Notes: a model not told the origin generated them from the letters alone. A stretch of DNA of 61,459 nt, filler included, from Sphacelaria rigidula (GCA_964200075.2; 5 parts of 5 records of this genome joined end to end with filler, not necessarily neighbours in it); one strand, 5' to 3'; shown: positions 4,215 to 55,097, counted from the whole stretch's first letter. Numbers and translations: made by a program.

Positions 4215-5430
4215 GCGCACCTATTCGGCGGGCCTCCTCCTCGTTCTGGTTTCAAGAAGTCATGAACCTCTCCGCTCCCTGCAGCACCCCCGCGTGCCAC
4301 GGTATCTCCCCTCCCTTCTTCGCGGCTGAGGATCAGAGAGCACTTTCAACTCCGAGCGTCTGTCGGTCGTCGTCCGTGGAAACGTTCGCGGGTCCGAAAG
4401 CTTGAATATCGTCCCTCAGGCACTTCAGCCAGGTTTACTCCGGGCACCAGCCCGCCCCCCCCCCCCCAATGACTGTTCCGAATCCCAGTCGCTTCGGTAG
4501 TCGTCCGTCCAGTTGTCCAGCCAGGGCTCGGGCGAACAGCAGTCGCCGTTGCTGGACGATGACTCCAGCACTTTGGCATCCGATCTTCTTGAGGGCCTGG
4601 GCGTACGATAGCTGTCGGTATGTGCCACAAAAGCGGCGGTACCCGATCATTCGCAGGAGGAGCCGGTTGTGTACCGTCCTCAGCAACCGGTAGTGCTCCC
4701 GGCGCGGGGCCCACGTCATGCATCCTTACAGTAGGGTCTTCATCGCCTCCGCCTCGAGCAGTCGGACCTTCAGTCGCCACGGTGCTTTCGGTCGCTCAAA
4801 GAGCTTACTTCCTGATGCACGCCTACGCTGCTCTTCTACGGTTGTTGATCTTATGTGTGAGCTTGCCATCTTCGGTAACGAGCCCACCCCCAAACATCGC
4901 AACTTCTAGGTTTGTACGCATGTCTGGCCCGCCGCTTCGATGACTAGTGGCGGGGGAGGTGGTGTTGGTGGCCCCCCGTCTTGTGGCATGCATGATCACG
5001 AGTACACTCCTCCTGTGCCGACTTTTTGGGTACACGCATAAGCAGTCTCTGTCTTCTTCTCCGACACCGTCAATCCGAATACCCCTAACACGCGAGCTAT
5101 GAAGGTCATCGTTCTCGTCGAGCCGTCGGGGGACATCAAGACGGCAGCCGCGTAGACATACAGCATTCCCCACACCGCTCTCCGTACGCGTTTCAGAGTC
5201 GTTCCCGCCCCCCTCACCGTCTCATTGTCAAGATATACAATGTCCTGGAGGACGATGTCGTCTTCGCTGAGTCGCGAAAATTACCTCGAGCGCCGCAGCG
5301 AACGAAACATTGAACAGTAGCGGAGCAGCACACATGTTCGCCGCAGTCCATGGGTGAACTCGAATCACTTCGAGAGGTCCTCGTCGTTCATGCGAACGCC
5401 GGCCTGCATGGCATCGAGGAATTGGCGGAT
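4215..5430 (-). mobile_element. Degenerate RTE-clade non-LTR retrotransposon fragment (RT to C-terminus)
   Basis: Minus-strand motifs IRQFLDAMQAGVRMND, HGLRR, RVRRAVWGMLY(VY)A (decayed YADD), FGLTVSEKKTET, KLTHKINNRRRAA, TWAPRREHYRLLRTVHNRLLLRMIG, RRLLFARAL..DGRLPKRLGFG and WHAGVLQGAERFM. Multiple frameshifts. Confidence 0.9.
4982..5005 (+). repeat. Very short 3' fragment of the C-tract-associated retroposon, inside the RTE
   Basis: tgtggcatgcatgatcacgagtac matches the family 3' end (tatggcatgcatgattatgagtac); C-rich flanks. Confidence 0.6.
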
Positions 5431-6879
5431 GTGCTCATATGTTTTCCCCTCACGACTTAGTGTGAGTAGGATGGCAATTTCTGTACGGGTAGCTTTGGTC
5501 AATATGCCACCCCATGAAAACTAGCAGGTCTTTGAACAAATATGCGGAATGGCCCTGTCCAGTCGATCGATGACTTCACATTGCATTTCTTCGTACAGAG
5601 CGAATGCCACCATGGTGAAGTTGAAATTATCCGTCACAAGTCTGATCCGTTATACCAATACAAGTAGTTGCACTATGAGATCCCCACATGATGCGGTAAT
5701 GCTGCGCCTGAGATCCGCCTGCTGATACCCCCACAGGGTGTATATCCCGTCCTCGGGATTAGCTATTACTACACGTTGGGATGACTGAAAATCTTTGCAT
5801 CCAAGCAAATATGGGTCGATAGTTTTAAAACAGAGGCACATCCCCATTACTTTTCGTGAGTTCCACTCTCATGCCAGAGTGCCCCCCCCTTCCTTCTTTT
5901 GCGATGATCTCCACGAAGTACTCTCGCGGGCTTACCGTTACGCAAGACGAGTTGTACAGTCATCCTCACACACTGTGAGGCTCATCGTAGCTGCGGAACC
6001 GCATACACGAGTCGCAAACGCTTGTCAGAGTGGTTCACAGGACACTACTCACGCACGTGTCGAGGATTCGCCACCTTGCACCAAACTTCACCGTTGCCTT
6101 TGAATTTTGGCCGACACAGTATACACGCACCGACTTCACATGCTACCCTGTCAATCACAATATATATGACGGCGAGTGTGTAGGCTTACCACTGCAGCTC
6201 ACGAACACCGGCGACAGCCATGACACAGCACGGCACAGCACAGCAGGACCAGCTCATTGGCTCAATTCCGATGATGAACGTCGAGTGCCTTTATGTACAC
6301 AACCTTTTATGAAACCAATCTAATTTGTCATCCGAAATCATGCCGTTTCAGTATGAATGCTCGGAAAACATGAAGTTGCCGGAAGCGAGCACCTCCTTTT
6401 CACGCCGCGTATCTGACGAACCGTTTCAAGACATCAAACCGTCGTTACACGTACCGTGTTCCGATAGTGCGTGTCGGAGTTGCTGTGGCGATCTATTGAG
6501 CTGTTCTGGCCGCACGACGTTTGCCGACGATCTCAGGAAACTGCTCCTATTTTTGTACAACGAAGAACGCCCCGTAGGAAGAAGCTGGCTCGGACCAATT
6601 CAATGCACACCCGCGATCCATCAACCAGCGGTAAACACCTACTACGCATTGTTCCGCCTACATTTAGTCCCTAACCTAGGTAACAAAGGTGGCTACAACC
6701 TACAGAACCCCCCGTTCAGTTTCTTCATCGATTCTGACCTCCGCCTCGGCGGTATGGCGACCAATACTCTGTGGGAAACACAAATCTTCAATGAGTCGTT
6801 GTACAACTGGGGCATTGCTGGAAGCTGCACAGAGGCCGTTGAGTGATGCTAATAGCACGAAACTACGTGGGAACGTTTC

Positions 6880-9800
6880 ACACCCTGGACAATACAAAAT
6901 GTGATATATATATATATATATAGCTCGCTCGATATATCGATGTGTCGGGTGATCAATATATTTTGGGCGAGCAATATGATGGCAAGAGAGTCAAGTCGAT
7001 AAATATTGTGTCATCAATATGTCAAGGCTCGCGATGTACGATATATATCGACCGAACAATATGTCACAACACGCGCCACCTCAATATATATATATATATA
7101 TTGGCCGAGTAATATGTTGGTGCGGCAAGGCACTAATATATATTTGTCGAGTAATATTTTGGCTGCCACACGAGGTCAATATATATTGACGATTCAACAT
7201 ACTCAACACCCGAAGCGCCAATACGTATTGCCGCCCCAATATGTCGTGCGTCAATGCGTCCAATATATATTGGGCGAATAACACACGAGGGAGCCGACCG
7301 TCACAATACATATTAGTGTAGCAATATATATTGGTGATTCAATATGTATATCGGGAAGTGTATGGGAATTAGTATGGTGAGCAGTTTCGTGTTCGCGGGC
7401 GCTATCGAAAGATATATCACCAGATGCCGAAAACGCTCAATATAGTCCTCCGCGAGCGTGTCAAATATACATTGGCTGCACAAAAGCTATGCGATGAGCG
7501 GGTGCAATACATATTGGAAAAACAATACTCTTGCATGTTGTTTTGCTCAATATATGTTATGACAACAATATGTTATGCATCGCTCCGACTCAATATATAT
7601 ATATTAAACACGGCCGGCATGCACATTATGTATTGAATGTTCTGTTCCCGGACCAAAAACGTGTCCAATATATATTGCCGTGCATTACTTTTTGCGATCA
7701 TGACACGAGATGTATATATTGCCGCTGCAATGTCTCCGAGGGCATCTAAACATACTAAATATTGAAAGGCCAACATTCGCCCTGTCTTCAATATTGAGTA
7801 ATGATATCATATCGGAACACATTGTGCTGTCCAGGGTATAAGCAACACAGCACCAGTAACTAGAGGAGTACCAAAAGGCGCATTTCGACCCGCGTTTTCT
7901 GCCGTCGTACAGTTTAGCCAAGATATAATACGTACTGTGAAGAGTATGGGCGGCACCGCGCCACTGGCCAGATAGGTATCAGAAAGCAGTTAGACTGGGT
8001 CGCCTCTTCTGTCACGATATTTTATGGCCAAAAGATATATCAAACTCTTTCGACAACTCTCCGCAGCCACGGACGAGAACTTCTGCGGCTTCCTTACATG
8101 CAAGCGTTTCCCTATCCGCACGGGCTCCGGCGTCCATAGCGTCTGGACCCTTTTCAAAGCGCACACCATACTTGAAATGCATGGCCTTTGGGGTTGGATT
8201 GACTTTGCAGAGTCGATTTCTCTGCAGAACATCGATGTTGGCGATTGCCGTCTTGACGCCCTCCCGTACACGGGTTGTTGCCGCAACCCATCGACGCGGC
8301 AAGACGGCACAGCCATTGTTCCTCGACCCCTGCGAGATCCCATAACTGCACCCATCTCTCTCCTTGTCACCACCATTCAGTACTCGCCACTGGCGGTCGG
8401 CCGACTAGCTTTCCGAAAAACTGCGTCCATTTCTGCTTTTCATGACTGTCTTTGATTTATGCAAACGTCCGCCTTGCTCCTTCGTTATGCGGTGGAGAGA
8501 GGGGGGTAGTGGGCGGGTGGTTTGTGGAGGGACAGAGAGTCACAAATACATGTTTTTTCGTGGACAGCTGAGAGCCACAGAAAAGCATTTTTCCGTGGGC
8601 AGCTGGCAGACATTCACTCTTTTGCAGTTGACTGCCACAAAATAGTACATACCCTGAGAGGTGACTAGCTCGTACACAACATAGGCATATCAAATCTGAG
8701 ACTCCCGGTATGTTTAAGAAGTAATTTACAGGAAACATACCGGAACTTGGAGTATGAAATACCCCCGACGTTCGTGGTTTGTTTGCTGGCTCTGAGACAC
8801 GACATTGGTTTTAGTAACAGTGATGCCGATTCATTAGCCAGCGTAAAAACCTCACGATCAAAGGGTTAGGCGACTGATGAATCGGATCATTTTTCCTCAA
8901 AAAATACTCCGAAATATCCCAGCATTGTTTTGAGTAAGAGTGATGCCGATTCATCCATCAACGTAACCCCGCAGCCAAAGGGTCAGGTGATTAATGGATC
9001 GGATCGCTTTTCCTCAAAAAATTACTCCAAACTATCCCGAAGGGACGACGCAACACTCTCGCCTACGTTTTTCTTCTGGGACTGACTCGAAATTGCGCTC
9101 TTACAAATATCCTGCTCGCCAGATTGTTTTTGAAGGATTTACTTGTTGAATTACAATGAATGAGAGATTCGTTGGACGGCACGACTTTCAGGACGGGGTA
9201 CAGTATATTACTTGAATAATATATTTCGGTGGAATTTATACCCGACATCAACGCGCCCACCCAATGTATACTGGGTAGGTGATGGGTTGTAATAATCTTT
9301 GATGGAAACGAATCTCGAATTCGCGTACTCGAAATCGGGGCCACCGTTACACGGGTATCACAAGTTTGTGAAATAGTTCTGTCCAGTCTCTTTCTGCTTG
9401 AGAGTGGTACTGTCTGTCTCGCGTACTCTTGGAGCCGAAGAGTAGGTACGTGGTGAATAATCTTTCGAGTACAGTGTCGTCCCGTGGTACTGTAGGGTAA
9501 TACGGTCCACGACACTCCACCATTACCGTACATGACAATGCCGTGTGGTGATACATGGTGGCATAGTCGGTATTACGAGAACAGGGAACAAACAGTGCGC
9601 GAGAAGAGTTCAGTAGTGCAGTGCTATGTATCACCCTGCAGGTACAGCGACAACAGACTATGATGGTACAGTACCGTTCGTTATGGTGATACATATGGCA
9701 GGGCATTGCAGCATAAGATATTACCATCGCCCCCGGGTACGGCGTCAGTACTTATCCGCTTCAAACCCCGTTCGAAGCTGCTTTAGCCGCTGGCGCGAGC

Positions 9801-12214: not shown

Positions 12215-12314
12215 NNNNNNNNNNNNNNNNNNNNNNNNNNNNNNNNNNNNNNNNNNNNTTAATTAATTAANNNNNNNNNNNNNNNNNNNNNNNNNNNNNN
12301 NNNNNNNNNNNNNN
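12215..12314. other. Artificial contig spacer
   Basis: 100 bp: N-run, TTAATTAATTAA (stops in all six frames), N-run. Confidence 0.98.
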
Positions 12315-13814
12315 TGAGCCTCTTTTTTCGTGCACCCCATTCCACCCCCCCCCCTATCGTAGGATGACTCTCATGAAGTAACTAAATATTTTATTTCTTG
12401 TTGGTATGTTGATCCGGGTCATGAGCGAGCCCATTTGGCCGTCTTTTCTGTATTTTCTCCCTACGACGCTGGACGCCGAGCACGCCGTGTGGCGCAAAGG
12501 TAGTGCTTTGGCTCCTCGGCAGTAGAGTTAACCCGCGTTGGGCTACAAATGTTCATGGTCGACACCTTGGTTGATTTGAGTGTGTACGACGAGAATCGGA
12601 TTTCATCTGAGCTTTTTTTTTTCCGTTCATTTTCACCACCCATCACGGTAACCTATCTTGTGTCCGGTTTTCCCCAGCCCATGGTTCCCGTTATTCTAAT
12701 GATAGTATGTCTGACTTGGATTACGTGTGAACGCTCCTGTGCAAGCGGGAAAAGTAGACATCTCTTGAAACAGTACACTTCACAAACCTCTTCAGCTCCA
12801 CGTTACCCTGCGACATGTTTCATTTTCGAAAGCGAGATGAGATGGTCCAATGTTTTTCCATCACCGTTCACCTTCGACGAGGGCTTCGACCTTCGACCCA
12901 AGCTGTCAGTGCCTGAAAGTATGCGCGTAATAGGCAATACGCGGAGCCCCGCGATGGTGGATCTGACACCTTGATTTTGAACGAGGGAAATTTCTTTCGA
13001 TACACGATGAACACAGGAGACACTAGAACGCAAGAAGATCGTCTCTGTTTCCTTCGGGCTAGAGTTTTATTTCGACCATGTCGCTGTATATGCGTGGCTG
13101 TATTGCGTAAAACACATCACAACGTAAGGTTGATTAGGTAGTGGATTGATTTTCCATCACCGTTCACCCGTTTGTGTTGCCTGTTTTCTGCGTTCTGCAC
13201 GGCGCTTTTTTCGTCGGCCTTTCTGTGCTCCTCAGATTCGATTTCCCGGGGTTCGGGGTTCAGTGAATCTAACAGCCGATTTGCTGCGGTTCGGTGATTT
13301 TTGGAGCCGAATTGCAGTGTCTCTGTCCGATCTACAAAATTCAGTGTGTTTCATCCACCATTCCGCGCTCTCAACGTTCGCGTTCTTTAATACAAATCAT
13401 GCCACACCCATGCCGGATCTTCCTCTTCTACTCATCACATAACACAGTTTCATTACCGATACACACATCAAATCTCTGGCTCAACCTCTTGGTAGAAATC
13501 ATTGCCTTTACCATCTCCCAAATTCCACGCCTATCGCGGAGAACGGGCCGCCTATCGGCGGCCCCGTCCGATCCTTGTACTACTAATGATGATGAACTTC
13601 AGATGGTACACCCTACAGAACACATCCTTGGACCCTTCTACCTCCCCTCCCGTTTTGATCCTTGTTGATGTTGTCCCTCTGATTGCTGCTGTTTGATATC
13701 TCCATGATACACTCCCCCGTCCGTCCATCTCCCGTCTGTTCCCCGTATATACGAAATCATTCTCATGGGCAACAAAACGCTTCGCACGCGGGGTGGGAAC
13801 ACGCTTTTTCACAG

Positions 13815-14185: not shown

Positions 14186-14674
14186 GACCCCCAATGGGGT
14201 TGGCGTCGGTTGGCGATGATGCCCTAAAACATGCCACCTACTGCGTAAGCTTGGCAACCAGGTTAGCGTTTTTTCCCGGTAACCATGATGGTGGTCGAGC
14301 TAGATCATGTTGTGCGGCGTGAGGGAAGCTCAACTCCGCACAACGGGAATGATCGTACCACGTGGTGCTTACATGGTGAGACACCCATGAGGCAGTGTAT
14401 AAGCCGTGGCTGTCTCTGGAATTGTCGATAGTAGAAAATAAAGCCACTCATTGTACGTTGTCATCCAAATGCAAGATGATCAGCGGGCTTCCGGCCGAAC
14501 AATCTTGGCAGGATGCAGCCCACCCTTCATGCGACTCCCCGAACATACCACAGCGCTTCGCGCTTGATGACTGAACGCGATCCTGGTCCGGCGAGAACCC
14601 GGCGTGCTCCGTCCCGGCCTCGTGGGGATGCGAGGTCAATGCTCTGATGCTATGGCATGCATGATTATGAGTAC
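14186..14674 (+). mobile_element. Long form of the C-tract-associated retroposon (internal region plus 3' A-B unit)
   Basis: 14186-14550 aligns by eye to 36460-36840; followed by cctggtccggcgagaacccggcgtgctccgtccc...atgagtac and a C-run. Confidence 0.85.
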
Positions 14675-14693
14675 ACCCTCCCCCCCATTACCG

Positions 14694-14789
14694 AGCCTGG
14701 TCCGGCGAAAACCCGGCGTGCTCCGTCCCGGCTTTATAGGGATGCGAGGTCAATGGTCTGATGACTATGGCAAGCATGATCATGAGTAC
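14694..14789 (+). mobile_element. Solo A-B unit of the C-tract-associated retroposon, in tandem with the previous copy
   Basis: agcctggtccggcgaaaacccggcgtgctccgtcccggctttatagggatgcgaggtcaatggtctgatgactatggcaagcatgatcatgagtac followed by a C-run. Confidence 0.85.
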
Positions 14790-15760
14790 ACCCCCCCTCC
14801 CCATGCCCCCCTCTTTTCAATGTTTTTTGGGAACATGTATTTATTGTCGTGCATTCATACCCCTCAGAAAGATTTTTGCCGGTCCATGAGCGAGAAGTAA
14901 TGACTCTCTTAGCTTGTGCCACTTTTGACGAGCAGGTATTCGATGTTTTGATGTCGATACAAGCATCCCTCCCATTCATGAACAGGACAGGTGTTGAGTA
15001 TTATTCTAAGGAAGCGAACCAGTGGTAAAATCACGGTCTGGTTGGAAGAGGGCGGCGTTGGTGGATCCCACCCCCTGGACAAGAAATTACAGTTGTCATG
15101 AAGTGTACTGCACAGTATCGACTATTGCGTGTATTGCAATGGACGGTAGATTACATGCTGTATCGGTTGTGTGAGGATGGCGAGTGCGGTTTGACTCCCA
15201 CGGTTGTGTACTGAACGAATCAACTGTCGTATTTTCTTGTGGAATGAATGTGTGGCGGCTTCTGTCTTAATGACTGTCACATGTCCTGCAGTTTCATAGA
15301 GGAGCAAGAGTGAGGCTACTGGGCAAGATGACACCTGAAAGCAACAGTTATCGATACATTACTATAGGATGTAAACGCCGCAGCTGCGGCGTCCGTGTCC
15401 TTTCCTCCTCCAAAACCCAATGCTAATCGTCTTGCTCCAAGATTTTTTGTTTGATAAAATTCTCACCCATGTACAAATTCGCACGTCGTTCGGGGATAAA
15501 ACATCTACAACACTTGTCCCACCATGCCGGTAGTCACAGTACGGTCTCAGAGGACGTCGTATGAGCTTGACTGCTACCTCGTCGACGAGGGAAAGGGCTT
15601 GCTGAACCCCTGTCGCTATAAAAAACGAAGGCGAGCACCGCGGGAGGGAGGCAGAGAACTAGATAGAAAAGCTCCCGTGTTGGCCTTACTCCTGTGTGGC
15701 CCCGGCTGTTGCGCCCACATATACCGAAAGGTGTAGACCGGCGCCCAGAATAGATGGGAC

Positions 15761-16061: not shown

Positions 16062-17116
16062 GTGAATGATGAACATGAAGCAAATGCAACAAGGCACATC
16101 GAGGGTGGTTGGGGTGCGTTGTAACGATATATCAATCGGGGATTCCCGGGCATGTTTTGAGCATGGCAGCTCTGATCACCCCGTGATATTCCAGTCTTTC
16201 AGAATATTGCGGTATCCATTAGTCTACACAGAGTATGCTGGATTTCGAGCGTGGGGTAGTATCGTCAACCCCCCCTTCCCCTGCCTCCCCTTCCCTCCGA
16301 TTTTTTTTCGTCAGAGTTGACCTCGATAGGAGTGCGTAATATCAAGGTATCTATTCGTTTATGTCTCCCCCGGTACCTGCTTGACATTCTGACGTCCAGG
16401 CTTTTGGATCGATGGTCCCACACCGCGTAGACTGCCGTCAATTAGTTCATGCTATTGGCGTGCTCACTCCATTCAACGACAGGAACCAGCTTATGATGAA
16501 GAACGGCCGTACGTACCTGTCGGGATTCCAATCTAGACCTTCCGCCATAACTCAGTTTTGGTGTATCATTTTTACTGTCACCACCGCCGCGGGGTATCCT
16601 TGATTTCCCACCGTATTTGGTACCGATTCTCTCTTGGTTTTTTGGATGCTCAAGGTGGTGCAGCACCAAGAACCCCACGTGTACTTGACATATCGGCTGT
16701 CGTGAATACTGAGTATTACAGGGTATGTGCGAATACTTGGACCGTACTCGCACCCTATCCTCCTCCGCTGTATCCACCATTGAATGCCGTGTCTCAATCA
16801 GGCGTGGTGTGTTGCGTGTGAAGAATCGACGATTGTTGACGTGCGTGACCAGCTCCTGTTTGCGTTCCCTGCTAACTTCTCATTTTTTTCGGGATGTGGG
16901 GGGGGGGGGAAGTCGGTATCATTTTTTTTACACAGTGTTGTCGCGCGCTTGTCCGTTTCTGTAATGATGCTTTTTGTTTGCCCCGTGGTGTGTTTCGTGC
17001 TGTCTCGTGATGGCATGTGCGTGGCGGTATGTCTATGCTCTTCATGCACGTTTTGTTCAAGCGGGAAAAGTTGTGTTCCACTTTCAATCGTATCTTCATA
17101 ACGCCCCCCTCCCCTC

Positions 17117-17179
17117 CTCCGCCTTGATAGGGATGCGTGCCCGATGGTCAAGTGACTGAGGCAAGCAACAATTTAGTAT
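17117..17179 (+). repeat. Diverged short copy of the C-tract-associated retroposon
   Basis: ctccgccttgatagggatgcg...tggtcaagtgactgaggcaagcaacaatttagtat, preceded by a C-rich tract. Confidence 0.7.
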
Positions 17180-17869: not shown

Positions 17870-18047
17870 GTGAGAGATGAAGCTATGCATGTCCGATTGT
17901 TTCCAGGTCTGTCCCTGGTTGAAAACCGCACGAAAGTCAAACGCTCCGTGAATCGCGTGCGGCACGAAAATCTTCTTGAAAGAGTATTGCCCACGGTAGG
18001 AATGGCAGCTTTTGGGCCGACGAGTCTCTCACTGAGGGGCTCCTTGA

Positions 18048-18891
18048 CCCTTTTGGGACCAGAGTGAACTAAGCTGAGTTGAGAAGCTTTCGTCAATCGG
18101 CATCATTTACGCTTGAGAAAAAGTGAAAATAATGCCGATTCACAAATAACGATCCCGGCGTGCAAACCACAGTCCTACGCAAAAAAAAAAATCTTACGCC
18201 AAGATTCCCGCTGACAAAAATCATACGCACCTCATGCATCTTTCGACAGTTTAGCAGGGTTTAGTACTTTATTTTCGGTACAAATCAAGCGTTACTCTGA
18301 CTGTGGATTTCTCCGCCGTGTCTGTTCTAACCAGCCTGAAACTTGGCACAGAGGTAGACCACAACACAAAGAGCATATTCCCGGAGTGGCGGCACGTTTT
18401 ACGTGGTGCGTTAGTTGCACGAAGCAAAATACAGATGTTGGGCAATGCCATCGATACGCCCTCCAAACACAGTCCCCTCGGCCCAGACTGCGTGAGATGT
18501 CAGTGGATGCATGTGTTGACACTCAAATACGCTCACTTCCTGCTGGGTGGCTCCTGCCCCGGCAAACGAACACATCGATCCGTACTGCGCGCCTCTGGAT
18601 GATGTCATTCTACGCGGTACCCATATTGGTATCGCCTTTGGAGGTGCTCACTTACGGAGACGAGGCCGTGCAAGCGCTGTTCGTGCTTTTACGTGCTGGA
18701 ACTCCGTCCACATGTCATGTAGACTACAGACAACAACCCCATCTTGCTGAATCTGGGGTTACGCGGTGTGTGCGTGCGTATTGGGGCGAAAAGATGTCGG
18801 ATTCTGATCCGATTTCTTCCTATTTTTTTCTTTTGGCGTAAGACTGACCAGGGGTTCACCCCTCGTTAGTGGGGGTCAGGGCCCAAAAGGG
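18048..18891. mobile_element. piggyBac-type non-autonomous element in a myosin intron
   Basis: TIR cccttttgggacc / gggcccaaaaggg (12/13 match); degenerate TTAA flanks (ttga, ttca); internal atgccgattca motif shared with the 100-bp MITEs. Confidence 0.6.
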
Positions 18892-20117
18892 TTCAAGCTA
18901 GCAGTTACACAATAATATGGGTAAAACACTCCAACATTCCCGGTGTTATAATCCGTTGAAAGGCACGTACATGGATGGAGGGGGAGGAGCTGTACATGGA
19001 TGAAAATCGATCCCCGAGTCTCCCTCGTTGCAATTGTATTCGGCCATAGTGTATAATATAACTTGGTTGGGTGGGAATATTGGAGCGGTTGAACTATGTG
19101 GTGCCGCACCAGCTCCCGAACCTCTCCCAGACCTCGGCAGTTGACGCGGCAAGTCACTCGTGCCACAGAACGCGGCGTGATATTGGTCAGGAGTGAGTGA
19201 CCTGTGGTGTTTTTTGCCCTACGGTCGATGGTGATACATACAGTGCAATACGACGAGACAAGGTTTCACGTCAGCGAAAATCCACATGCAGAAAAGACAC
19301 GATAGGGTACTCTGTCATGCTCTACAATTGAGCCACAACCCGTCCTCATGAGTGTTTCATCGAAACAAGGAGCACTACGCACCTACGTCTGTGCACTTCA
19401 CTTTTATCTTTTTTATGGGAAATATAGAATATGTGTGCCGTAAGTACACGAGCATCAGCGATGTCGTATTGCGCGGCGTGAGGTTCATACACTGGACGAG
19501 AGATTACAACGTCAAAAAGTGTACTGCGTGCAGTATGGACTATTGCGCCCATTGGCACAGACTGAAGATTCCATACTGTACCCAGCACATTTTTTGCAAT
19601 AAAATCCATTTTCAGTATTTAGGGTGTGGTGAGGTTGATGACGTGGCCTACGCTGGCGTGTACCGCAGAAAATGAAGTGGGTAATAGCGATGACTGAACC
19701 AACGCGAAATTCCTTGAAAATTTGTGAACAAGACTGATATTATGTTTGTCAGACCCTCTCGCATGTGTAAATCCCGTGATCTTGATGTTTTTCACGCACT
19801 GTGGGGTACTATCAGATTGACTGAGAGGTTGCCAAATAAAATGTAAATATACATGAAGGTGGATTTTCCATTTCTCGCGGATAAAGAATATTGTAGAGTT
19901 CAAGTTGTTATTGGTGGGTGAAACCCATATATATATTTTTTTCCAAGTTTTATTTGGCAGCGGGCAAGACACTCTTCTTTGTTCTCCTGTACCAAGAATG
20001 AAACGGGTGCGATACTTGAACACGCTTTCAACGGTTCAAGAAATAGTGTTTCCGTAAAGTATTCATGTCCGGCAACGATTATTCTCCCATGCTGTGACGT
20101 ACTACGTTGTTCATCAG

Positions 20118-20227: not shown

Positions 20228-21770
20228 GTGAGTTTATCCCGTCCAGTTGTGATTTTCCCTCCGCGATTAGTGGAACCATTTCATGTACTGTTATCTTCAG
20301 GGTAATGGATAGAAACAGGTACATTTTTTCGAGGCTACTTGAGGGTACAGTACAAGTCAGCGAGTTTTTATCGGGTGAAACGGAGTAGACTTGATCAGAG
20401 TTTTTTTTTCTTATGCGAGCTGAAGGCGATGTTTGTTTCCTCCTCACAGATGTAATCCAAGCAAGAGGCACGAAAAAATATGAGAGGGATTGGGCGTCGG
20501 GATAACCGTGAGGTTGCGTGTCATCCATCTGAGCTTTCCTGTACACCAAACCAGACCGCAACGGTAAGATACAGCTCATCTCTACCTTCCCCTGAGGTTT
20601 CTTTTTTTCCCCAACATGCGTGTACCCTGTTGCGGACGAAACAGGGTATGTACCTCTCCAACTATTGTACGTTGGCGATGATGAATGCATACCTTTACCT
20701 GATCACTGCTCTGTTCATATATTTGTAAATATCTATGAGTCACCTCCAGCTGCCGCCCCCATTCTTATGGCCCAAAGTCGCCCGCCCGTCTGTTTTAGCT
20801 TCGGTACTGTTGTGTTTCAAAGGTCAAAGCAAGCATATCTATCTACTTGAGGAGGTGTTCGCTTGTGGAAAACTAGTGCTTAACGACCCCTTACCTTTTT
20901 TCTGGTCGATTTCTGGGTGTATCACGTTTCATCATGGGTGATTAGGCAGAACATGTTGTCATGCGCAGATGCATTGTGCGCGCTGGCTGCCACTACTGCT
21001 GCTGCGATGTGCGTGAATCAGGCCCTCTCTGTCTTGCTTTGGCGGTTGTGCTACTTTCTATACCCTGGACAATGGAATACGCAGTCAGAAGGTGTAATGC
21101 GTACAGTATCGACTGTCGCGCCTATTGCAACAGACAATGGATTCGATACTGTACGCGGTACATTTTTTGACAACGGAAATCATTGTCCGGGGCGTGGTAT
21201 TTTCAAGGCAATGCTTGCGTACCCCGCCCACGTTGTTGCGATGCGTTGCACTTCACTTCATGTCATATCATGTCAATCGTGCGTTCTGGTGCCTACCGTG
21301 TATATCGACGCGTGAGAGGTGATCGCTGAAATCGTCAAATCCACATCGATTTACGTGTAGTATACATCTGGGCGATATTCGGCGTTTTTTTGGGGGGGGG
21401 GGAAACGGAACGGACCAATCGACCTACCAGAAGTGTCGAAATGGGAGCTCCACGCCGTTGGCCCTTCGTCCAGCCTAGATAATATTCCTGGAAAGTTTCC
21501 ATGGTTTCTTCATGGAGCTTTTTATAGTGATCCGTGAACCTGCACGCCTCCTGCCGTGCCTTCAAAACATGGAAACCCCTGGATTGTCAGCCGGTGGTGC
21601 TGCTCCGAGACGATGCTGACTGTCAAGGGGAGGGGTAAAACCCTTTGGCAAATAGGCTAGGTTGTCGGTTGAACATTCATATTCTGATCTTCACGGTAGA
21701 TACTGCGCGGGCAAACCCAGCTTGTTGTTGACTGCTTCACGGTCGTGTTGTCTCTTGTTTTTTGCCGCAG

Positions 21771-21874: not shown

Positions 21875-21889
21875 GTAATGGGGGGGGGG

Positions 21890-21952
21890 GTACTCATTTG
21901 TTGCTTGCCTTGGTCGTTTGAGTATTCACCACGCATCTCTTTCGAGACGGAG
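21890..21952 (-). mobile_element. Short copy of the C-tract-associated retroposon, 15 nt into a myosin intron
   Basis: Reverse complement ctccgtctcgaaagagatgcg...caaggcaagcaacaaatgagtac followed by a C-run; degenerate TSD gtaatggggggg / gtaattggcggggg. Confidence 0.85.
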
Positions 21953-36201: not shown

Positions 36202-36267
36202 GTGCCCGGTCCCGAAAGGGGTGCGTGGTCAGTGGTCAAACTACTAAGGCAAGCAACAAATGAGTAC
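36202..36267 (+). repeat. Short copy of the C-tract-associated retroposon
   Basis: gtgcccggtcccgaaaggggtgcgtggtcagtggtcaaactactaaggcaagcaacaaatgagtac followed by a long C-run. Confidence 0.85.
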
Positions 36268-36269
36268 TC

Positions 36270-36306
<37 letters not shown>

Positions 36307-36407
36307 CGCGTCGAGCCCCCCGCGCGGCCGTCCGCCCTACCCGACGCGCGGGGGCCGCCGGNNNNNNNNNNAAGAGAGCCCCCCCCCCCCCCCCCCCCCC
36401 CCCCCGT

Positions 36408-36840: not shown

Positions 36841-36940
36841 NNNNNNNNNNNNNNNNNNNNNNNNNNNNNNNNNNNNNNNNNNNNTTAATTAATTAANNNN
36901 NNNNNNNNNNNNNNNNNNNNNNNNNNNNNNNNNNNNNNNN
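36841..36940. other. Artificial contig spacer
   Basis: 100-bp N/TTAATTAATTAA/N block. Confidence 0.98.
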
Positions 36941-37082
36941 CGGACGCTGTGCGAGATTGCCTTGTACGGTTTTGGTTGAGCATTGGGTGCTCGAGCCATA
37001 TAGCTCTAGACTTTGCCGAACACGCTAGCGTGTTCCTTGGAACAAAGAGTAGGGTAATTACGTTAGGTACTAAGGCTGTATC

Positions 37083-38625
37083 ATGAGCGGCACAGGAGAT
37101 GAGCGGAGTGTGGTGGAGGAGCTGGAGGCTCCACCCCAGGTGTTGGTGATAACACCAGAGGACTACCACAGCTTTCAAGAATGGAAAGCGTCTCGAGCGA
37201 GGGGGGTTCCTACAGCTGGGGGGACAGGAGCGCCTCAGCTAGAAGCCCAAGAAGCAGCAGCCCCGAGAGAGGTTGAGGCTGACACAACACTCACCGGGTC
37301 GGCCGGTCTTGGATTGGGTCGACTAGGGGCGGGGGCGAGAGCACCGCTCAGGGGCACAACAGGTACCCATGCCCCTGGCACATCGTTAGGAATGTGTCTG
37401 GTCTTGGTTTTCCCAGTACAGGGGGGAAGCTAGATGTTGATAGCAGTTTACAAAACCGAGGAAGTACACGACCAGCGTCGTTATTGATGGGTGTCGATTC
37501 ACGGACATTGGAAGCAAAAGATATCGCCGAATTTACAAGTAACAAAAATCATAGATGGGCGACTTTTAAGCGTGATGTAGAGCGATATGCGTTCATGTGG
37601 GGTTTCGGAGATGGATTCTTTCGCGACCCACCGCATTGTGTTGATCTTCTCAATGAGCCGCAGCTATTAGGGTTGGGTGTCAGTCAGGACGACATCAATC
37701 GAGCTCGCTTTGCGTATATTTTGCTTCTCAACACTGTCAAGGATCCGGTCGCGAGACATGTCCTTGTGGATTCGCGATCACCGTTCATAGCATGGCGTGC
37801 ATTGGACGAACAGTTCTCTCCCAAAACCTCGGGAGCTAAGATGGATGTCTTAGACGAGTTCAACAATCTGAAGTACACAAAAGGGTAGGATACAGACTAG
37901 TTTTGGATCCAACTACAGTCATTGCACTCGCGTTCTGTAACGTTGGGGTTGGAGATTCCCCGTGAGATGATTGTGGATAAACTCCTAAATTCCCTCCCTG
38001 CTGAGTACACCACAATTCGAGATCAGTTGCGTTTCGAACCATCACTGTTGACTGGCAAGACCCGAGCCGTTGTAAAGGATAAATTTCTGTCTCTGAAGAA
38101 AACGGGTACTTCGCGTGGTAGTGATCACAACCGTGCCTTATATGCAGGCAATAAGGGTTCCGGCTACAGGAGTAAAAAAGAAGGCGGGAAGTCGCAGAAA
38201 CCCGCGGCTGGATCAAGTGATGGAAATACACAGCCGGATGGAAAAACAGGGGGTGGCGGTAGTTCCTCGGATAAAAGAAAGCCGTAGAAAATAGAAGCCT
38301 CACCTGTTACGAGTGTGGAAAAACTGGCCATTTTACGTCTGAGTGCCCAGAACGTGTCTGCGAGGTGTGCGGAGGAAAAGGACATTGAAAAGAATTCCAC
38401 AAAATGGTCGCAATGTGCACATCTGACTCTTTCAAGGACTCAGTAGACTTTGGTTTCATGGCAGTCGGGACTGACGAATACGCGTCTGCAGCAGATGGTA
38501 CACGAGGGGACTGCCCAGTTCTTGACGACAGGGAGAAAGAAGTCTGGATTGCAGACACTGCTGCAACATGTCATATGACCCATTCGCGTCACTGCATGCA
38601 TGACTATGAGCCTTGCGAGTATTGA
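37083..38625 (+). pseudogene. Copia gag-protease (disrupted)
   Basis: SPFIAWRALDEQF and IVDKLLNSLPAEY (gag); zinc knuckle CYECGKTGHFTSEC at ~38304; protease WIADTAATCHMT at ~38545. Confidence 0.9.
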
Positions 38626-39189
38626 TTATATATACCTCCCCCAAAGTCGCAGCAAGCGGTTCCGTTTTTTATGTCGGGAGAGGAAAACTCACAGGATGTG
38701 GAAAGCGGGGAGGGCGATGTCAAGAGCTCTGATTCTGACTCTGACGAGTCGGATCTCAGCATTGGTGGGGGGTTTCCGGGTGGTACTTTGTTAGAGAAAC
38801 GTGATGAGATGGTGGAAGCGAAGGAGAAGCGAGGCGGTAACAACGGCGAAGAGTCCAACCATCAGCCGTCTACTTTGTCTTCATCCTCTGATGATGATCT
38901 TTCGGAGACATCGTCTGTCGGTGGCGGCGGGGATGCCGCGAACCAACCTGACTCGGTTGAGCCGACACTTGGCCGGACAAGGCAACAGACACGTGCCTTG
39001 CTGCAGCAGCGTCAGGAGCAGCGACTTCAACAGCAAGTTCAAGACCTTCGGGGGCATGAGGGTGATCATAATGCGTTGTGGACAGCCAGGGGGGATTTGT
39101 GGGCTACGGAACAGACTTTGGCTCAGCTGGCAAGCACGGAGGACCCAACACACTCAGGGGAGTCTGGGTTGGAGTTGATCCCATACGTG

Positions 39190-40813
39190 ACTCTTGAAGA
39201 GATTGAGTCAGCCCCCAAGTCTGTGAAGGATGTGTACAGTTCCAAGTACAAGGCTGTGTGATTGGACGCGATGAAGAAGGAAGTAGAGGGGTTAGAACGC
39301 GATAACACGTGGACCGTAATTGACTCACCCCCGTTTGGAGAGAAAGCAGTCGATTCGAAGTGGGTTTTGCAGGGGAAAACCGATGAACATGGTTACGTGA
39401 TGAAGGCTCAGGCTCGACTGGTTTTTAGGGGTGATCGGCAAGAAATTGGCGACATCCCGACGTTTTCACCAACCCCACCCACTACGTGCTCCGTCTCGAA
39501 AGGGATGCGTGGTCAATGGTCAAATGACTAAGGCAAGCAACAAATGAGTACGCCCACCCACTACGACTCACCGAGTAGCTGCAGCGGTAGCTTGCGCAGA
39601 GGGAAAGACGGTTTTTCATTTTGACGTTGAGCAAGCTTTTGTTCAGTCGGAGCTAGAGGATGACGTGTACATGAAGCTACCGCCAGGTTTGGGTGAACGA
39701 TCTGGCACTGTCATGCATTGACACAAAACGCTTAATGGCTTGAAGCAAGCTGCTAGAGAGTGGTACGGCAAACTGGGGAAAACTCTGAACGTTCTGGGTT
39801 ACGAACAGAGTTTGATAGACCCGTGTGTGTTCAGACTGATGGACGGCGAGGAGATCAAAGTTCTGATTGTGGTTCACGTCGATAACATGTTCGTTGTAGG
39901 TGCTGAGCCTGTGTGCAACAAGTTGGCAGAGGATCTCAACATACATTTTCCAACGAAGAATCTTGGTGAGCTGGTCTGGTACGCAGGATGCGAGTACAAA
40001 CACGATCTCGAGAAAGGGACCCTCAAATTGTCTCAGACTGCGTATACTCAGCGGACTCTTGAAAGATTTTCGATTAAAAGGACAGCTGCTACCCCTGCGA
40101 TTGTTTCGTCTGACTTTAAGGTGGAGGAGGGGGAGGATTTCGAGGGGAGGTACCGTGAGGCGGCGGGATCTTTGATGTGGCTCTCCATCAACACCCGCCC
40201 GGACATCGCTGACGCCGCGAGAGCTGCATCCCGCCATAACGAAAACCCGACGCCCGAGGACTGGCGCAAAGTGTTGCGGATTTTCGAGTACCTCAAGACA
40301 ACAGTAGACTTGGGAATCAAGAATGCTAGGGGTTCGAGTGACGAGTTGGTGGCGTATGCGGATGTAGACTACGCGAAATTCGAGGATCGGCTTTCAGTGT
40401 CGGGAGGAGCAATATTTTTCTGCGGGACTGTTGTAGGATTTTTCTCTCGCACTCAAAAGAACGTAAATCTCTCTTTTACTCAGGCTGAACACGTAGCGAT
40501 GGGCGACGTAGTGAAGGATGCTCTGTTCGTGAAGGCGGTGCTGAAATTTATGCAGCCGCAAAGGAAGGAATTTTGTATGCCACCGGTGTATGAGGATAAC
40601 CAGGGGGCGATTCAACTCGCGAAAACTCCGCGAAGCTCCCACAACAATAAGCACATTGATGTGCGTCATCATTTTCTGAGGTAATTGGTGTCTGCACCAA
40701 TCATTCGAGTGGAGTATGTCAAGTCTCTTGAGCAGCACGCAGACGTTTTGACAAAACCTTTGCCTGTTAGTAACTTCAGGTACCACAGGAATGTTTTGAT
40801 GAACATCAAGTGA
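39190..40813 (+). pseudogene. Copia reverse transcriptase-RNase H (disrupted)
   Basis: AMKKEVEGLERDNTW, SKWV, ARLVFRGDRQ, HFDVEQAF, LNGLKQAAREW, VVHVDNM (decayed YVDD), TRPDIA, YADVDYA, EDNQGAI, KHIDVRHHF, QHADVLTKPL. Confidence 0.95.
39487..39552 (+). mobile_element. 66-bp 5'-truncated retroposon insertion with a perfect 13-bp TSD inside the copia RT
   Basis: TSD cccacccactacg at 39474-39486 and 39553-39565; removal restores FSPTPPTTTHRVAAAVACAEGKTVFHFDVEQAF. Confidence 0.95.
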
Positions 40814-46678: not shown

Positions 46679-49092
46679 TATATTGTCCAGAACCTGATTT
46701 CCCCTAGAATCGTTTTCCCTGAATAGGTTTCCTTAGAATATTTTCCCCGCGGAATCTTCATTGTCTCGTTGTTGGAAACGGACTTAATTTCTACCGGTGA
46801 TCATGGAATGAATTTCTATCATGCCCGCTTTCGTACTTTCCCAGAAACCCTTGCTGTGCTTCTGCTGTTGGATGAGAACGGACTTTGATTCATACCAGTG
46901 ACTACGGAACGGATTTCTATATTTCCTCCGCCTATGTCTCTCGGAATAATAGCTTCATGCAACATCTGTCCCAGTAAGCGAACACGGTAACGGGTTGCGG
47001 GTAGTATATCTCCAACGGGGGTGCCTAAGATGCCGCTGTTCGGTCCGTTAAATCGACAAAATTCGATGATGTAGAAGATGCTCTTCATGAGCGAGCAATG
47101 CTACGGTAGGGGTGCACTTTTTTCGCGAAATTTTGTCTGGTTCAGGGGCTCCATACGACTCTGGACGCACAGGAGTATAGGTCAGGGCATCCCCGTCTGC
47201 GGATTTATTCGGGATATCCCCAGCACATCGGAATAGTAATCCTGGCGTACTCTCGTATATTTTCACAAGTCTTGTTTTGCATGAGATAAAGGGCTCCTAA
47301 CAATTCTCACCTCAGAAAATATTTGTGTACCGCTACCGTAGCATCACTCGAGCGAAATTCGGGGTCATGGTCATCAAGACGTTTTTGGAAACAACTGTCT
47401 GTATTTTGGAGATATGCTTGGGTTTTCTTTGGCATTTCGTTCAAGAATATGCTCAGATCTGTCCGGGCTTTTACAGAATTTCGACGTATATTTCATCACC
47501 ATTTATAACATCCAAGATGAACTCTCTCGAGCACACACCCCCAAAGTCGTAAACAGGGGGCCGAAGTATCGTTAGGCCGCTGTTCTGCCGCTGTTCTGCC
47601 GCCGTTCTATCATATCAGGTCGGTAGAGAGTTACGCTGGACATTCCACCAGGCAACTCAAGGGCGCCGAATGGCATCGAGGTCCGCTCACCGAGCGCTGC
47701 GGTGTCGGTACCGAGCACCCGGCAGATCTCTGGAAAACTGCAAAGCTCAGATGGGCGACATCGGAGAGGTCGATCTCCCAAACAAACGTCTGAGGGCGGT
47801 CGTCACTTCTTGCTCCTATGAAGGCAGGGGGGCTGAGAACGGTCAACGAGCTTTTTTAACCTTTTGTTTTACACGGTTCTTATGAAAAAGCGAGGAGGAA
47901 CGGCCACTTTCGAGCCAACTGTTTTTGTTTCGGCTGTTCGCCTTCATGGGGTAGTGCGCGAAGAAAAAACAAATCAACTGGACAAACGCCAACGATTTCA
48001 ACAAAGACTACAGTGGTCAATGTTTGCTATGGGATTCACTCAATTTGCAATTTTTCGAACACAATTTTTCCCCTTCACCCTGACGTTCGAGAGTCGGTAG
48101 GTCTTGCAAGGAATCGTAGGTCGTGGTAGCACATTTCTCGAAATGGCGTCGGAAAATGCAGAGGAAAACCCCGTTCATTGGGGGGGGTAATATTCACAGT
48201 ATATGATCGGAAAACCTGGTTTTCAGGTTGTAGGGCAATGGATATCGAGAAAATGAAGCCTAAACGATGCAACTCTTCAATACAACGATCCGGATCGTTC
48301 CGGTGGAACACGAATATCGGAGAGCGGGAAACAGAGGCTATGAACTCATAAGACCACGAAGAACCCGTGAAACCGTAATTCGTTCATAATTGATCGTGAG
48401 AAAATGTCTTGTTTCAAAATTTGTGCAGCGTACTCATGTCGCTCAGTTCCCACAAGTCATTCCCACAGGTCGGGGTGAAAGAACACCGTGAGGGATCATG
48501 GTAACCAAAAATCCTGTAAAAAACTATTTCAAACGTTTTTTTCCTGCGAACGTTGACTTTCATGTCGCCTGACGCATTGGACACGATTCAGGGCGGTTAT
48601 AAACATGACCGATCATCCCATGGGAAAGAAAGAGTATGATCATACCCATTTCCTCCTAGAATATAGTTTTTTCTGTAGAGTTTCTATTTCGTCTCGGTTG
48701 TTCGGTGAGAACGTAACTGATCTCTCCTGGAGTGAGTTTTTAGGTAGGGGTTGTGACGAAAATACGCCGTTGCGTTGAGTTGGTAGTGATGATCTGGATA
48801 ATGACTGGGGGCACGGGGATCCTGGGGGCTTCTTGGAGGGTCCTGGATAATGAGCGGGGACACGAGGATCATACCCTGCGTGTCCAGGGGGTTGGCGCCT
48901 GGCAGGGCACTCCTGATAATGAGATGTTGTGAAGGCTGGCAACTGAAACTGAGGCCAGTAAGACCGGGGAGTCCCTCAACAGCAGTAATCCACCACCAGT
49001 TCTTCTGGCTGGCGTCACAACATCGATACTAGTGTTAATGCCAGAAATAGTATCTAAAGTCATCCTACGATGGGGGGAGGGGGGGGGGGGGG

Positions 49093-49150
49093 GTACTCAT
49101 GAACATGCCAACCATAGGCATCAGACCCTTGACCTCGTATACCTACAAGA
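49093..49150 (-). repeat. 3' end of the C-tract-associated retroposon at a contig end
   Basis: G-run then gtactcatgaacatgcc..catcagacccttgacctcg, the reverse of the A-B unit. Confidence 0.8.
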
Positions 49151-49250
49151 NNNNNNNNNNNNNNNNNNNNNNNNNNNNNNNNNNNNNNNNNNNNTTAATT
49201 AATTAANNNNNNNNNNNNNNNNNNNNNNNNNNNNNNNNNNNNNNNNNNNN
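49151..49250. other. Artificial contig spacer
   Basis: 100-bp N/TTAATTAATTAA/N block. Confidence 0.98.
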
Positions 49251-50281
49251 CCTAACGGAGAGGGTGTCCATACTAAAATATCTATGAAACCCCCGATCGA
49301 TGCATTCAGCGGATGACGACGGATTTTGGTGTGGACATTCTCTGGAGCAAGGGAAGACGATATATACCCTCATTTTCACCTAATTCCTCATCTATCCCGA
49401 GATATGGCGCACATAAGTTTCAATACTAAAACCAATATATTACGAGCAGAGGCACTAGATGCCTTAAATCTGGATATCGCGTCTCAGCTTTTGAGAGTTG
49501 TTCCATAAAATTTCGTGTGGTGAACCGCTAATGCAAAATAATAATAAAAAAAACAGCTAGCTACCTTTTTCATTTTTTTCCCATTTTTTTTCATTGTGTT
49601 TTTTTTGTGCATTGTGTTTTTAGTGGAGTTTTGAGGAGAAATGAACGTTGCTCTTAGGCCTTATCTCAGTGTTTTAGCTCAATTTTTTAAATTATGATTT
49701 GAAAGTTAGCGTGGGGAACCACAAAAGTGTGCCGAATAAAAAAATGGGCCTTCATTTTTTTCCATTGGAGGTTAGGGCGTTCTCGTGAAGAAATGGTCAC
49801 TACCATACTAGAACGCCCTGAACCAGTGAAAAAAATGAAAAAAACTGACCCACTGAGTAGTGTTAAGTAAGTATGCCTTAGAGAGCGCCCACACAAAATT
49901 TCAATACACGAAAAACAAACGTGGGCCGGTGCGCGGCCTTCGAGATACTGTTCCGAATTTCTACCAACCCGGTTTTTTAAAGCCCATGCTCCCGCCAATA
50001 TCTAGAGTAAGAACCTGGAATTTGGTATGGACAATGCATAGGGCATGAAAAACAAGATTACGTCGGCACCAGAATATATATATTTCTTTTTGAGTTAAGG
50101 GCAACAATCCGTTTTCAGGTATCAGTAAAACGCCTTCGACTCATGGAAAAAAACTTTTGGTGCCGATCTTTTTTTTTCATGCCCTATTCATTGTCCATAC
50201 CAAATTTCAGGGTCCAACTCTAAATATTGGCGGGAGCATGGGCCTGCGAACTTCAAATCCGCCTCAGGCTGGCCCAGCTCG
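49251..50281. mobile_element. Second, left-truncated copy of the 34884-36124 Tc1/mariner-type element
   Basis: Collinear homology (gatgcattcagcggatga..., aaatctggatatcgcgtctcag...); right end aggctggcccagctcg|TA. Confidence 0.85.
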
Positions 50282-54587: not shown

Positions 54588-54931
54588 GTGCTGGGCTCAG
54601 ACTCGGCTCGCCTGGCGGCCGACAACCCAGCGGAGGAGGCACTGTTGATCGACGTCGTCAGTGGCTTGGCGCCGTCGGGAGGCCGTCCCTGCACCGCCGA
54701 AACCTTCTTGCCCGGAAAAACGGCGGCGTCGGCGACGACAGCCGGGGGTGACGGATCGCGCACTCCACCGAGGCGGGTAGCCCTGTGCGCGCTCCCGGAG
54801 GCATGCAGTCGGCACAACTCGCCCCCGCAGCCGCATGCAATCGCCGACTGCGCGCGCAGCATGAGCGGCGGTGGCAACGTAGCCATCTTGATGTGCTTGA
54901 AGGACCCTTCGTTTGCCTTTGCCGCCGGCTG
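54588..54931 (+). CDS. NPEPL1: M17 aminopeptidase, NPEPL1-type, internal exon (N-terminal domain)
   Basis: tag|GTGCTG...GGCTG|gtgagt; CALPEACSRHNSPPQPHAI matches the NPEPL1 SRHNSP motif; phase 2 end joins the next exon as GC|AVARAFPLY. Confidence 0.9.
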
Positions 54932-55001
54932 GTGAGTTATGTCCTCCCGTAGCATCGGAACAGATGCTGCCGTCGTGTGTACCTACAGCATCCTTGGGTG
55001 T

Positions 55002-55097
55002 GTGCTCATGATCTTGCATGCTTTAGTCACCAGACCGTTGACCTCGTATTCGTATAAAGCCTGGACGGACCACGCCGGGGTTTTGCCGGGCCAGGCT
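55002..55097 (-). mobile_element. Solo A-B unit of the C-tract-associated retroposon in an NPEPL1 intron
   Basis: Reverse complement agcctggcccggcaaaaccccggcgtgg..gaggtcaacggtctggtgactaaagcatgcaagatcatgagcac; G-run nearby. Confidence 0.85.

Follow-up and report, generated by a model that had tools for sequence, protein, structure and literature searches.

A short repeat family of Sphacelaria rigidula as the probable 3' end of an APE-type LINE and its passengers, with C-runs at the tail position

A 61,459-nucleotide stretch of DNA from the brown alga Sphacelaria rigidula (GCA_964200075.2; hereafter the window, meaning the whole of this stretch, filler included) contains short dispersed repeats that stop at the same sequence and border on runs of C, which raises the question of what propagates them and whether the C-runs are sites that they enter or tails that they bring along. 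A sequence-only reading of the window had described a non-coding retroposon family whose copies lie in C-tracts and lack a poly(A) tail. We consider it likely that the family consists of the 3' end of an APE-type long interspersed nuclear element (LINE) together with non-autonomous elements to which a copy of this end is attached. As for the C-run, the best reading is a tail borne by the element that also favours C/G-run targets.

The window is composed of five contigs joined by linkers of N/TTAATTAATTAA (boundaries at 12215-12314, 24529-24628, 36841-36940 and 49151-49250), and an extra gap of 10 N at 36362-36371 lies between two C/G runs. The terminal motif of the family, ATGAGTAC, occurs at 11 sites, whereas the 100 shuffles average 1.46, go no higher than 4 and never reach 11. 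Nine of the 11 sites fall in copies of the family; the remaining two, at 48430 (-) and 57047 (+), do not belong to it. An nhmmer profile of the copies detects 11 clear members with E-values from 4e-22 to 2e-9, as well as a 5' part at 36436-36455, and BLAST contributes two more, a degenerate fragment at 4984-5014 and a long form beginning at 14186. Taken together, the profile search and BLAST find all 13 positions of the sequence-only reading to be real and spread over the five contigs, and its division into two subfamilies, A and B, is borne out by the profile search and by comparison of the copies. The copies and their adjoining parts are listed below (L166 belongs to the public LINE contig introduced further on).

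4984-5005, +: degenerate A-type 3' fragment with an internal deletion, ending CGAGTAC; BLAST 87-90% over 30 nt
14186-14675, +: long non-autonomous form, 5'-truncated, sense in a myosin intron; body 14186-14577 unrelated, 3' unit 14578-14675 LINE-like
14676-14686, +: C-rich tail of the 14186-14675 copy, serving as landing site of the following copy
14687-14790, +: full-length short A unit (~105 nt), head-to-tail after the long form; C-rich tail at 14791-14802
14676-14683 and 14795-14802: candidate 8-nt repeat CCCTCCCC flanking the short A unit, not significant
17114-17179, +: old, diverged B copy with 3' end TTTAGTAT; nhmmer E 1e-16; spanned by an X4 contig of a ~2%-diverged relative
21880-21954, -: B copy (21890-21954) with C10 tail (21880-21889); 90% identity to L166 5089-5161
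24629-24677, +: B copy severed by the contig start, GC10 tail; 96% identity to L166
26223-26307, +: B copy (about 26231-26299) with a C8 run on either side; 93% identity to L166
34728-34811, +: diverged A copy, 5'-truncated; found by BLAST and profile
36128-36304, +: longest B copy, comprising the last ~155 nt of the LINE (amino acids 1339-1382, 66%), then TCA and C34, with no upstream C-run
36379-36840, +: C27 (36379-36405) leading into a long form with intact 5' end (repeat 'a' and body), severed by the contig end
39474-39565, +: B copy (39487-39552) made up of the final 19 LINE codons, the stop and GTACG, between 13-bp target-site duplications, in a Copia reverse-transcriptase gene
49072-49149, -: A copy (49093-49149) severed by the contig end; tail C14TC6 (49072-49092)
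55002-55131, -: A copy (55002-55110) including ~15 nt of long-form body; on its own strand C17 before it (55115-55131) and only CCC after it; antisense in an M17 intron

The 3' end is kept in 12 copies, and all 12 stop at GAGTAC or a close variant. The match is exact in nine of them, the variants being GAGCAC at 55002, TTTAGTAT at 17179 and CGAGTAC at 5004. The fixed 3' end and, on comparison of the copies, the variable 5' ends that had been ascribed to the family are therefore upheld. Most B copies measure 63-90 nt.

Public contigs of four runs (X1, X4, X5 and X6, of which X4 represents the ~2%-diverged relative) were aligned on contig 2. Their summed depth reaches 6.6 million on 14355-14762, compared with ~57-75 for single contigs; such sums are not copy numbers and serve only to call the family very abundant. 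In run X6, which is RNA by guess only, exon bins have a depth of about 85-127 and three intron bins are close to 0; the contigs include the family, but being contigs they cannot reveal whether the element itself is transcribed. Viral contigs yielded no locus with an exact 22-mer and none in an alignment-based scan, and nine loci with an 18-mer from the long form showed no real similarity. A scan of metagenome and viral contigs with a degenerate 16-base pattern returned 154 loci, which we regard as chance occurrences since none matches the unit profile or the long form.

The nature of subfamily B is revealed by a single public sequence. Searched for in the prokaryote genome collection, the final 22 nt of B have a single exact match, which lies in a 5,259-bp contig (L164) filed under a bacterial metagenome-assembled genome (MAG). 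A search of the whole MAG showed this contig to be the sole such piece in its 4.6 Mb, and it is thus evidently stray eukaryotic DNA. L164 contains a 1,382-amino-acid frame with matches to Exo_endo_phos (E 8e-11), Exo_endo_phos_2 and RVT_1 (E 7e-32). The frame, which closes with ...VVNGQMTKASNK, takes its stop codon from the TGA within ATGAGTAC; GTACG and C13 follow, so that the stop codon lies 5 nt from the end of the element. C13 is the only run of at least 8 nt in the 5.2 kb. The B copy at 39486-39559 matches the last 74 nt of L164 with 98.6% identity, and the other B copies align with the same contig (L164/L166) as follows.

24629-24681: 96% identity
26235-26307: 93% identity
21880-21952: 90% identity
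36128-36281: 80.6% identity over 155 nt

At the protein level (tblastn), 39488-39544 corresponds to the last 19 residues of the LINE with 100% identity and 36129-36260 to residues 1339-1382 with 66% identity. By these alignments, the B copies are LINE copies with extreme 5' truncation, 38 to 155 nt long. Hence the family cannot be called non-coding, as B is the C-terminal coding end of the LINE frame, and the autonomous partner that had been postulated as missing can now be named: it is the frame with APE and RVT_1 domains that ends in the same 74 nt and C13. The APE domain is an ordinary one, and nothing points to the exotic class of C/G-tract-directed endonuclease that the sequence-only reading had called for.

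Two further features of the LINE contig were observed. Upstream of the frame, at 455-520 of L166, lies a diverged inverted copy of the 3' unit, so that the L164/L166 contig holds two family insertions. In the protein encoded by the frame (P0121), residues ~35-115, which precede the endonuclease, give no Pfam hit, and residues ~1265-1281 contain a Cys-x-Cys...His-x4-Cys motif whose four Cys/His columns are invariant in an alignment of seven sequences.

Relatives of the LINE indicate what the sequence beyond its terminal motif represents. Proteins 95% and 80% identical to it share its terminal peptide, and an Ectocarpus sp. protein with 67% identity in the reverse transcriptase (RT) region has the C-terminus ..RVVNGLTAK. 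More distant relatives (32-58% protein identity) were found in G002, a MAG-filed record with Mb-scale contigs. This 16-Mb record, filed as a bacterial MAG (L167-L206), contains dozens of APE+RT LINE copies and looks eukaryotic. The distant relatives keep the 3' box, TGCGTGGTCAATGG followed by GGCAGCAACATGAGTA. Thirty loci with this end were retrieved, of which the 24 with the exact 12-mer were analysed and the six without it dropped. After the box, the 24 loci have (ATT)n or (TTTA)n repeats of variable length, of the TATTATT or TATTTATTT type, and their first 15 nt contain 1.3 C on average. Since variable simple repeats follow the shared box, the position after ATGAGTA is the tail position in this LINE group. 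The tail repeat thus appears, from these alignments, to be C in the lineage of the window and of an AT-rich type in the sister lineage.

Subfamily A has a different composition. Its long form, of ~550 nt, opens with a 5' segment of ~55 nt, which recurs after a body of ~390 nt and is followed there by a ~50-nt end with ATGAGTAC; in the short A unit the 5' segment is fused directly to the end. Two copies of the long form are present in the window, the 5'-truncated one at 14186-14675 and the one cut by the contig end at 36406-36840; the former is 76% identical to 36459-36838 over 386 nt. The public contigs aligned on contig 2 confirm the long and short layout genome-wide: about 49 X1 contigs show joints between 5' segment and body, and upstream of the 3' unit 918 X1 contigs enter the body and 385 show poly-C and the first bases of the element. 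The A unit at 14718-14802 is 80% identical to the LINE over 85 nt, the likeness being confined to the last ~80 nt of the LINE. The long A body shows no similarity to the LINE, neither form has an Rfam match at E<=10, and no tRNA was found. Subfamily A is thus a passenger carrying the 3' end of the LINE: a LINE-dependent non-autonomous element, or short interspersed nuclear element (SINE) in the wide sense. A search of the long-form open reading frame (ORF) at 36410-36640 against Pfam gave no hit, and Rfam at gathering score gave no match in the whole window.

Other identities for the unit were tried and rejected. A SINE in the strict sense, with a tRNA, 5S or 7SL head and a Pol III promoter, and likewise a structured RNA, ribozyme or tRNA-derived SINE, lack the corresponding Rfam (E<=10) or tRNA match. 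A Penelope-like element or retrozyme is rejected because no Rfam hammerhead was found at E<=10, the 3' part is unlike the start of the body and the partner has an APE domain, not GIY-YIG. Folding energies of seven units are ordinary (z from -1.4 to +1.4), and the RNAalifold consensus is weak, with 3 of 11 pairs compensatory; given that B is coding, we build no conclusions on RNA structure.

We then compared the flanks of the copies with the background. The 15 nt that follow the 3' end contain on average 9.5 C, as against 3.7 (s.d. 1.9) in the background, a mean attained in none of 100,000 resamplings; at least 8 C are present in 9 of 12 copies and in 3.0% of background windows. The C-rich 3' flank that had been reported is therefore genuine. 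It has a counterpart on the other side, where a 15-nt window with 9 C or more lies no further than 25 nt upstream in 8 of 10 copies (3.4% in the background). The runs that follow the copies span 3 to 34 nt and may be interrupted (C7TC4, C14TC6). The aligned public contigs show the same picture: past the ten C's of the 21890 tail the consensus is poly-C in contigs of X1 (712), X4 (650), X5 (122) and X6 (81), poly-C also precedes the 5' end of A in 385 X1 contigs, and in many contigs the tail passes directly into a new copy, full-length or truncated.

Two copies are asymmetric. C34 follows the longest B copy, with its 3' end at 36267, and no C-run precedes it; judged by this copy and by the variable tails of the related LINEs, the C-run behaves both as the own tail of the element and as a preferred target. 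The proposal that the family lies in C-tracts instead of carrying a tail is consequently not supported in its second half. The 55002 copy has C17 upstream and only CCC downstream. Both the tail and the target readings are needed to account for the C-runs.

One copy is a proven insertion. The B copy at 39487-39552 is flanked by a perfect 13-bp target-site duplication (TSD), CCCACCCACTACG, at 39474-39486 and 39553-39565, which confirms the single perfect TSD noted before. In the unaltered sequence, the Pfam family RVT_2 is matched at positions 2-48 before the copy and 65-104 after it; removal of the copy and one TSD rejoins the Copia reverse-transcriptase frame. The TSD opens with CCCACCC immediately 3' of the element end, in agreement with the prediction for a G-rich nicked strand pairing with a C-ended RNA. 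Given the restored frame and the TSD, the C-rich target is older than the insertion, and no C was added in this case.

By eye, imperfect repeats starting with C can be seen at four other copies (CCCTCCCC at 14789, 8/8; 21890, 12/14; 34810, 8/9; 55002, 7/8). Because all flanks are C-rich, cognate flank pairs were scored against non-cognate ones, using composition-weighted scores with and without positional constraint. Only 39551, the end of the 39487 copy, stands out, its score being equalled by 1.4% of null pairs. As to TSDs, the sequence-only reading thus stands for the one perfect 13-bp case, and only one of nine complete copies beats non-cognate flank pairs. No paralogous empty site was found within the window apart from the Copia case, and in the X4 relative, where contigs break at repeats, no joint skipping a copy is present among the joints listed.

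Target-primed reverse transcription (TPRT) with C/G pairing is a reasonable, though not proven, explanation of these observations. The proteins of the LINE would bind the conserved last 50-80 nt of the RNA. The endonuclease would nick the bottom strand, whose G-rich 3'-OH would pair with the C-tail of the RNA, and reverse transcription would begin at the paired tail and mostly abort early. A second nick, 7-14 bp away, would generate a TSD starting with C. As each insertion leaves a new C-run, older copies would become landing sites, and the expected outcome would be head-to-tail clusters and C-runs on both sides. TPRT from a nicked G-rich strand and a C-ended RNA had already been suggested; the fixed 3' end, the variable 5' ends and the one TSD starting with C speak for it.

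Several observations weigh against the LINE-and-tail reading or limit it. Four of the five complete B copies start inside a ~10-nt zone, which is unlike random truncation. None of the 329 ORFs of at least 75 amino acids in the window contains an RVT_1 or APE domain, and the LINE is seen only in one stray MAG-filed contig outside the window; its presence and activity in the S. rigidula genome are hence deduced from sequence identity. The C-tail of the RNA and its priming on G-runs are likewise deduced, no RNA 3' end having been observed. The Copia insertion gained no C beyond the CCCACCC of the target itself, and the long run of the 55002 copy is only upstream, so that pre-existing C-tracts explain some copies without a tail. 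The other eight of the nine complete copies have a mean TSD score of 9.05, compared with 9.32 for the null (P 0.53). Finally, homopolymers of at least 8 nt number 19 for C, 9 for G, 28 for T and 9 for A in the 61 kb (65 in total), and 19-20 of the 28 C/G runs have no adjoining recognisable copy; homopolymer C/G is thus common in this genome for whatever reason.

Part of this evidence would also be expected if the element had no tail of its own, as the sequence-only reading supposed: the RNA would end in GTACR and a few C, and the long C-runs would be pre-existing tracts chosen by a C/G-tract-specific endonuclease. The Copia insertion without added C, the 55002 copy, the C-runs ahead of 8 of 10 copies and the frequent C/G runs away from copies all fit this explanation. 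It is contradicted by C34 without an upstream run at 36267, by the LINE of L164, where C13 is the one run to reach 8 nt in 5.2 kb, by the variable simple-repeat tail of the sister lineage at the same position and by the ordinary APE domain of the endonuclease. On balance we find it improbable.

The runs might, alternatively, be secondary: an insertion would leave 3-4 C, which replication slippage would expand, and C-tracts would not be targeted at all. Run lengths from 3 to 34 nt and interruptions such as C7TC4 and C14TC6 are in keeping with slippage, as is the general over-representation of homopolymers (65 runs of at least 8 nt across the four bases). However, expansion explains neither the C-runs upstream of 5' ends nor the many contigs in which a tail passes directly into the next copy, and we rate this explanation as quite unlikely.

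Spread at the DNA level without reverse transcription, as a satellite, a solo terminal repeat of a long terminal repeat (LTR) or DIRS element, or a miniature inverted-repeat transposable element (MITE), is close to refuted. It could draw on the one tandem pair (14578-14790) and on the ~55-nt repeat near both ends of the long form, yet the units are dispersed singly in five contigs, one lies within coding sequence in a clean 13-bp TSD, and the repeated unit forms the terminus of a LINE frame. Nor do the termini fit: terminal inverted repeats are absent, head-versus-tail scores of four units being no better than those of shuffles (p 0.53-1.0), which speaks against a MITE or other terminal-inverted-repeat transposon, and the ends read ATTACC.. 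and ..GTACA rather than TG..CA, which together with a TSD of 13 bp rather than 4-6 bp speaks against an LTR retrotransposon or solo LTR. An artefactual origin of the C/G runs, in sequencing (for instance as poly-G from two-colour chemistry) or in assembly, is barely credible: several contigs do break in or next to runs, and the 10-N gap lies between two of them, but the runs are internal to contigs, lie 3' of the end on the sense strand of the element (9 of 12) and recur in contigs of the runs of three studies and in an unrelated public contig (L164).

The surroundings of the copies comprise two host genes and a retroelement: a myosin gene in contig 2, an M17 aminopeptidase gene in contig 5 and a Copia-type element in contig 4.

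13683-14045, 15870-16121 and 20098-20385, +: exons of the myosin motor gene (Myosin_head profile positions 381-449, 450-505 and 578-619)
54588-54932, 59968-60678 and 61039-61377, +: exons of the M17 (NPEPL1-like) aminopeptidase gene
37074-40684, +: Copia-type retroelement, degenerate, with several stops; pieces of gag (PF14223), Pol_BBD and RVT_2 are present, and the B copy at 39487 interrupts the RT

The myosin introns carry the long form with the A unit and the 17114 copy in the sense orientation; the 21890 copy is antisense. For the M17 exon, the closest named protein is from S. rigidula (89% identity), and Ectocarpus species reach just 54-61%; an Ectocarpus origin of the window is accordingly not upheld. 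The sequence-only reading had offered an abundant Ectocarpus repeat, Sower, as a possible match of the family.

Further repeats and runs were noted in the window. Just upstream of the LINE fragment at 36128 lies an unclassified repeat as an inverted pair, 35771-35890 (-) and 35966-36086 (+), 83.6% identical over 122 nt, with a third copy in contig 5 at 50171-50278 (+; 76%). Contig 2 contains additional unclassified repeats at 12315-13538, 18027-18842, 19251-19658, 20883-21290 and 23739-24528, to which many contigs from other places in the genome align, with summed depth 100 to 1,000 times the single-copy level. Away from copies, the longest C-run (C33, 12145-12177) lies close to where contig 1 ends. 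An identical 14-mer, ATCGTAGGATGACT, stands right after a C-run at 12355-12368 (+) and 49058-49071 (-) without further similarity, perhaps by chance or as the stub of another element; no second family associated with C-runs was found in the window.

Placed among known retrotransposons, this is a normal system of LINE and passenger, and its unusual trait is the homopolymer-C tail. In L1 and Alu, a poly(A) tail pairs with the T-rich nicked strand at TTTT/AA. The present family resembles them in that its tail is a homopolymer, the TSD starts with the tail base, copies are 5'-truncated and re-enter older tails, and there is a non-autonomous passenger. It differs in that the homopolymer is C, so that polyadenylation cannot be its source, and in that the passenger shares the specific 3' sequence of the LINE (the stringent type), which Alu does not. 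Stringent LINE/SINE pairs, such as those of RTE or UnaL2/UnaSINE1, likewise have a common 3' box, almost no 3' untranslated region (UTR) and a variable simple-repeat tail; here, in contrast, the repeat unit is a single C and runs reach 34 nt. Insertion into simple repeats or older tails and head-to-tail clusters are also features of Waldo, Mino, Kibi, Koshi, Dong and Zepp of Chlorella, and we know of no homopolymer-C case among such microsatellite-targeting or self-nesting LINEs.

The closest likeness, judged by general features of these clades, would be to RTE and RTE-X. RTE elements have AT-rich trinucleotide tails and very short 3' UTRs. The single APE+RT frame, the stop codon 5 nt from the end and the (ATT)n of the sister lineage are shared with them, whereas the tail here is C instead. 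As with Ectocarpus RTE/RTE-X, the host is a brown alga; an abundant non-coding element of ~550-600 bp has a 3' end matching an APE-type LINE and a 5' part of obscure origin; very short non-autonomous forms are abundant; and the Ectocarpus protein, 67% identical in the RT region, keeps ..VVNG... RTE-X elements average 4.9 kb in bivalves, according to the passage on them in PMC10294476. RTEX-N1_Ec32 is described in the main text of the 2025 Ectocarpus transposable-element paper as a ~600-bp non-autonomous Ectocarpus element with more than 6,000 copies and 2.48 Mb; it has a 3' end conserved in autonomous RTE-X LINEs and a 5' part of unknown origin (PMC12477816). Sower, according to a review, is the most abundant repeat of E. 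siliculosus, at 1.2% or ~2.5 Mb (PMC3145265). From their size and abundance, Sower and RTEX-N1_Ec32 are probably the same element, and by the same two properties either may be homologous to the family of the window. Homopolymers, a C tail or C-tract targets are not mentioned in the main text of the Ectocarpus paper, the family notes of which are in its supplements (PMC12477816); a brown-algal genome preprint contained nothing on this system, and phrase searches of the literature found no retroposon with a C tail among the papers listed.

For the annotation of S. rigidula and related brown-algal genomes, these results mean that very abundant repeats of 60-550 nt can be filed correctly. The oddities that remain are the C homopolymer at the tail position, the C-runs on both sides and the stop codon within the terminal motif. 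It is possible, although we hold the idea only tentatively, that the LINE lineage swapped an ancestral AT-rich microsatellite tail for a C homopolymer and primes on G-runs, its insertions seeding the next landing pads; this loop would have generated copies of 60-100 nt in their tens of thousands, along with a large part of the C/G homopolymer load. If true, this would be the first homopolymer-C counterpart of L1 poly(A)/T priming and a test case for how a non-A RNA tail is gained and kept. If the pattern is confirmed genome-wide, the complementarity of tail and target in TPRT would not be bound to poly(A), sister LINE lineages with the same 3' recognition box and different tails could be compared, and the system may account for the frequent C/G homopolymers in this genome.

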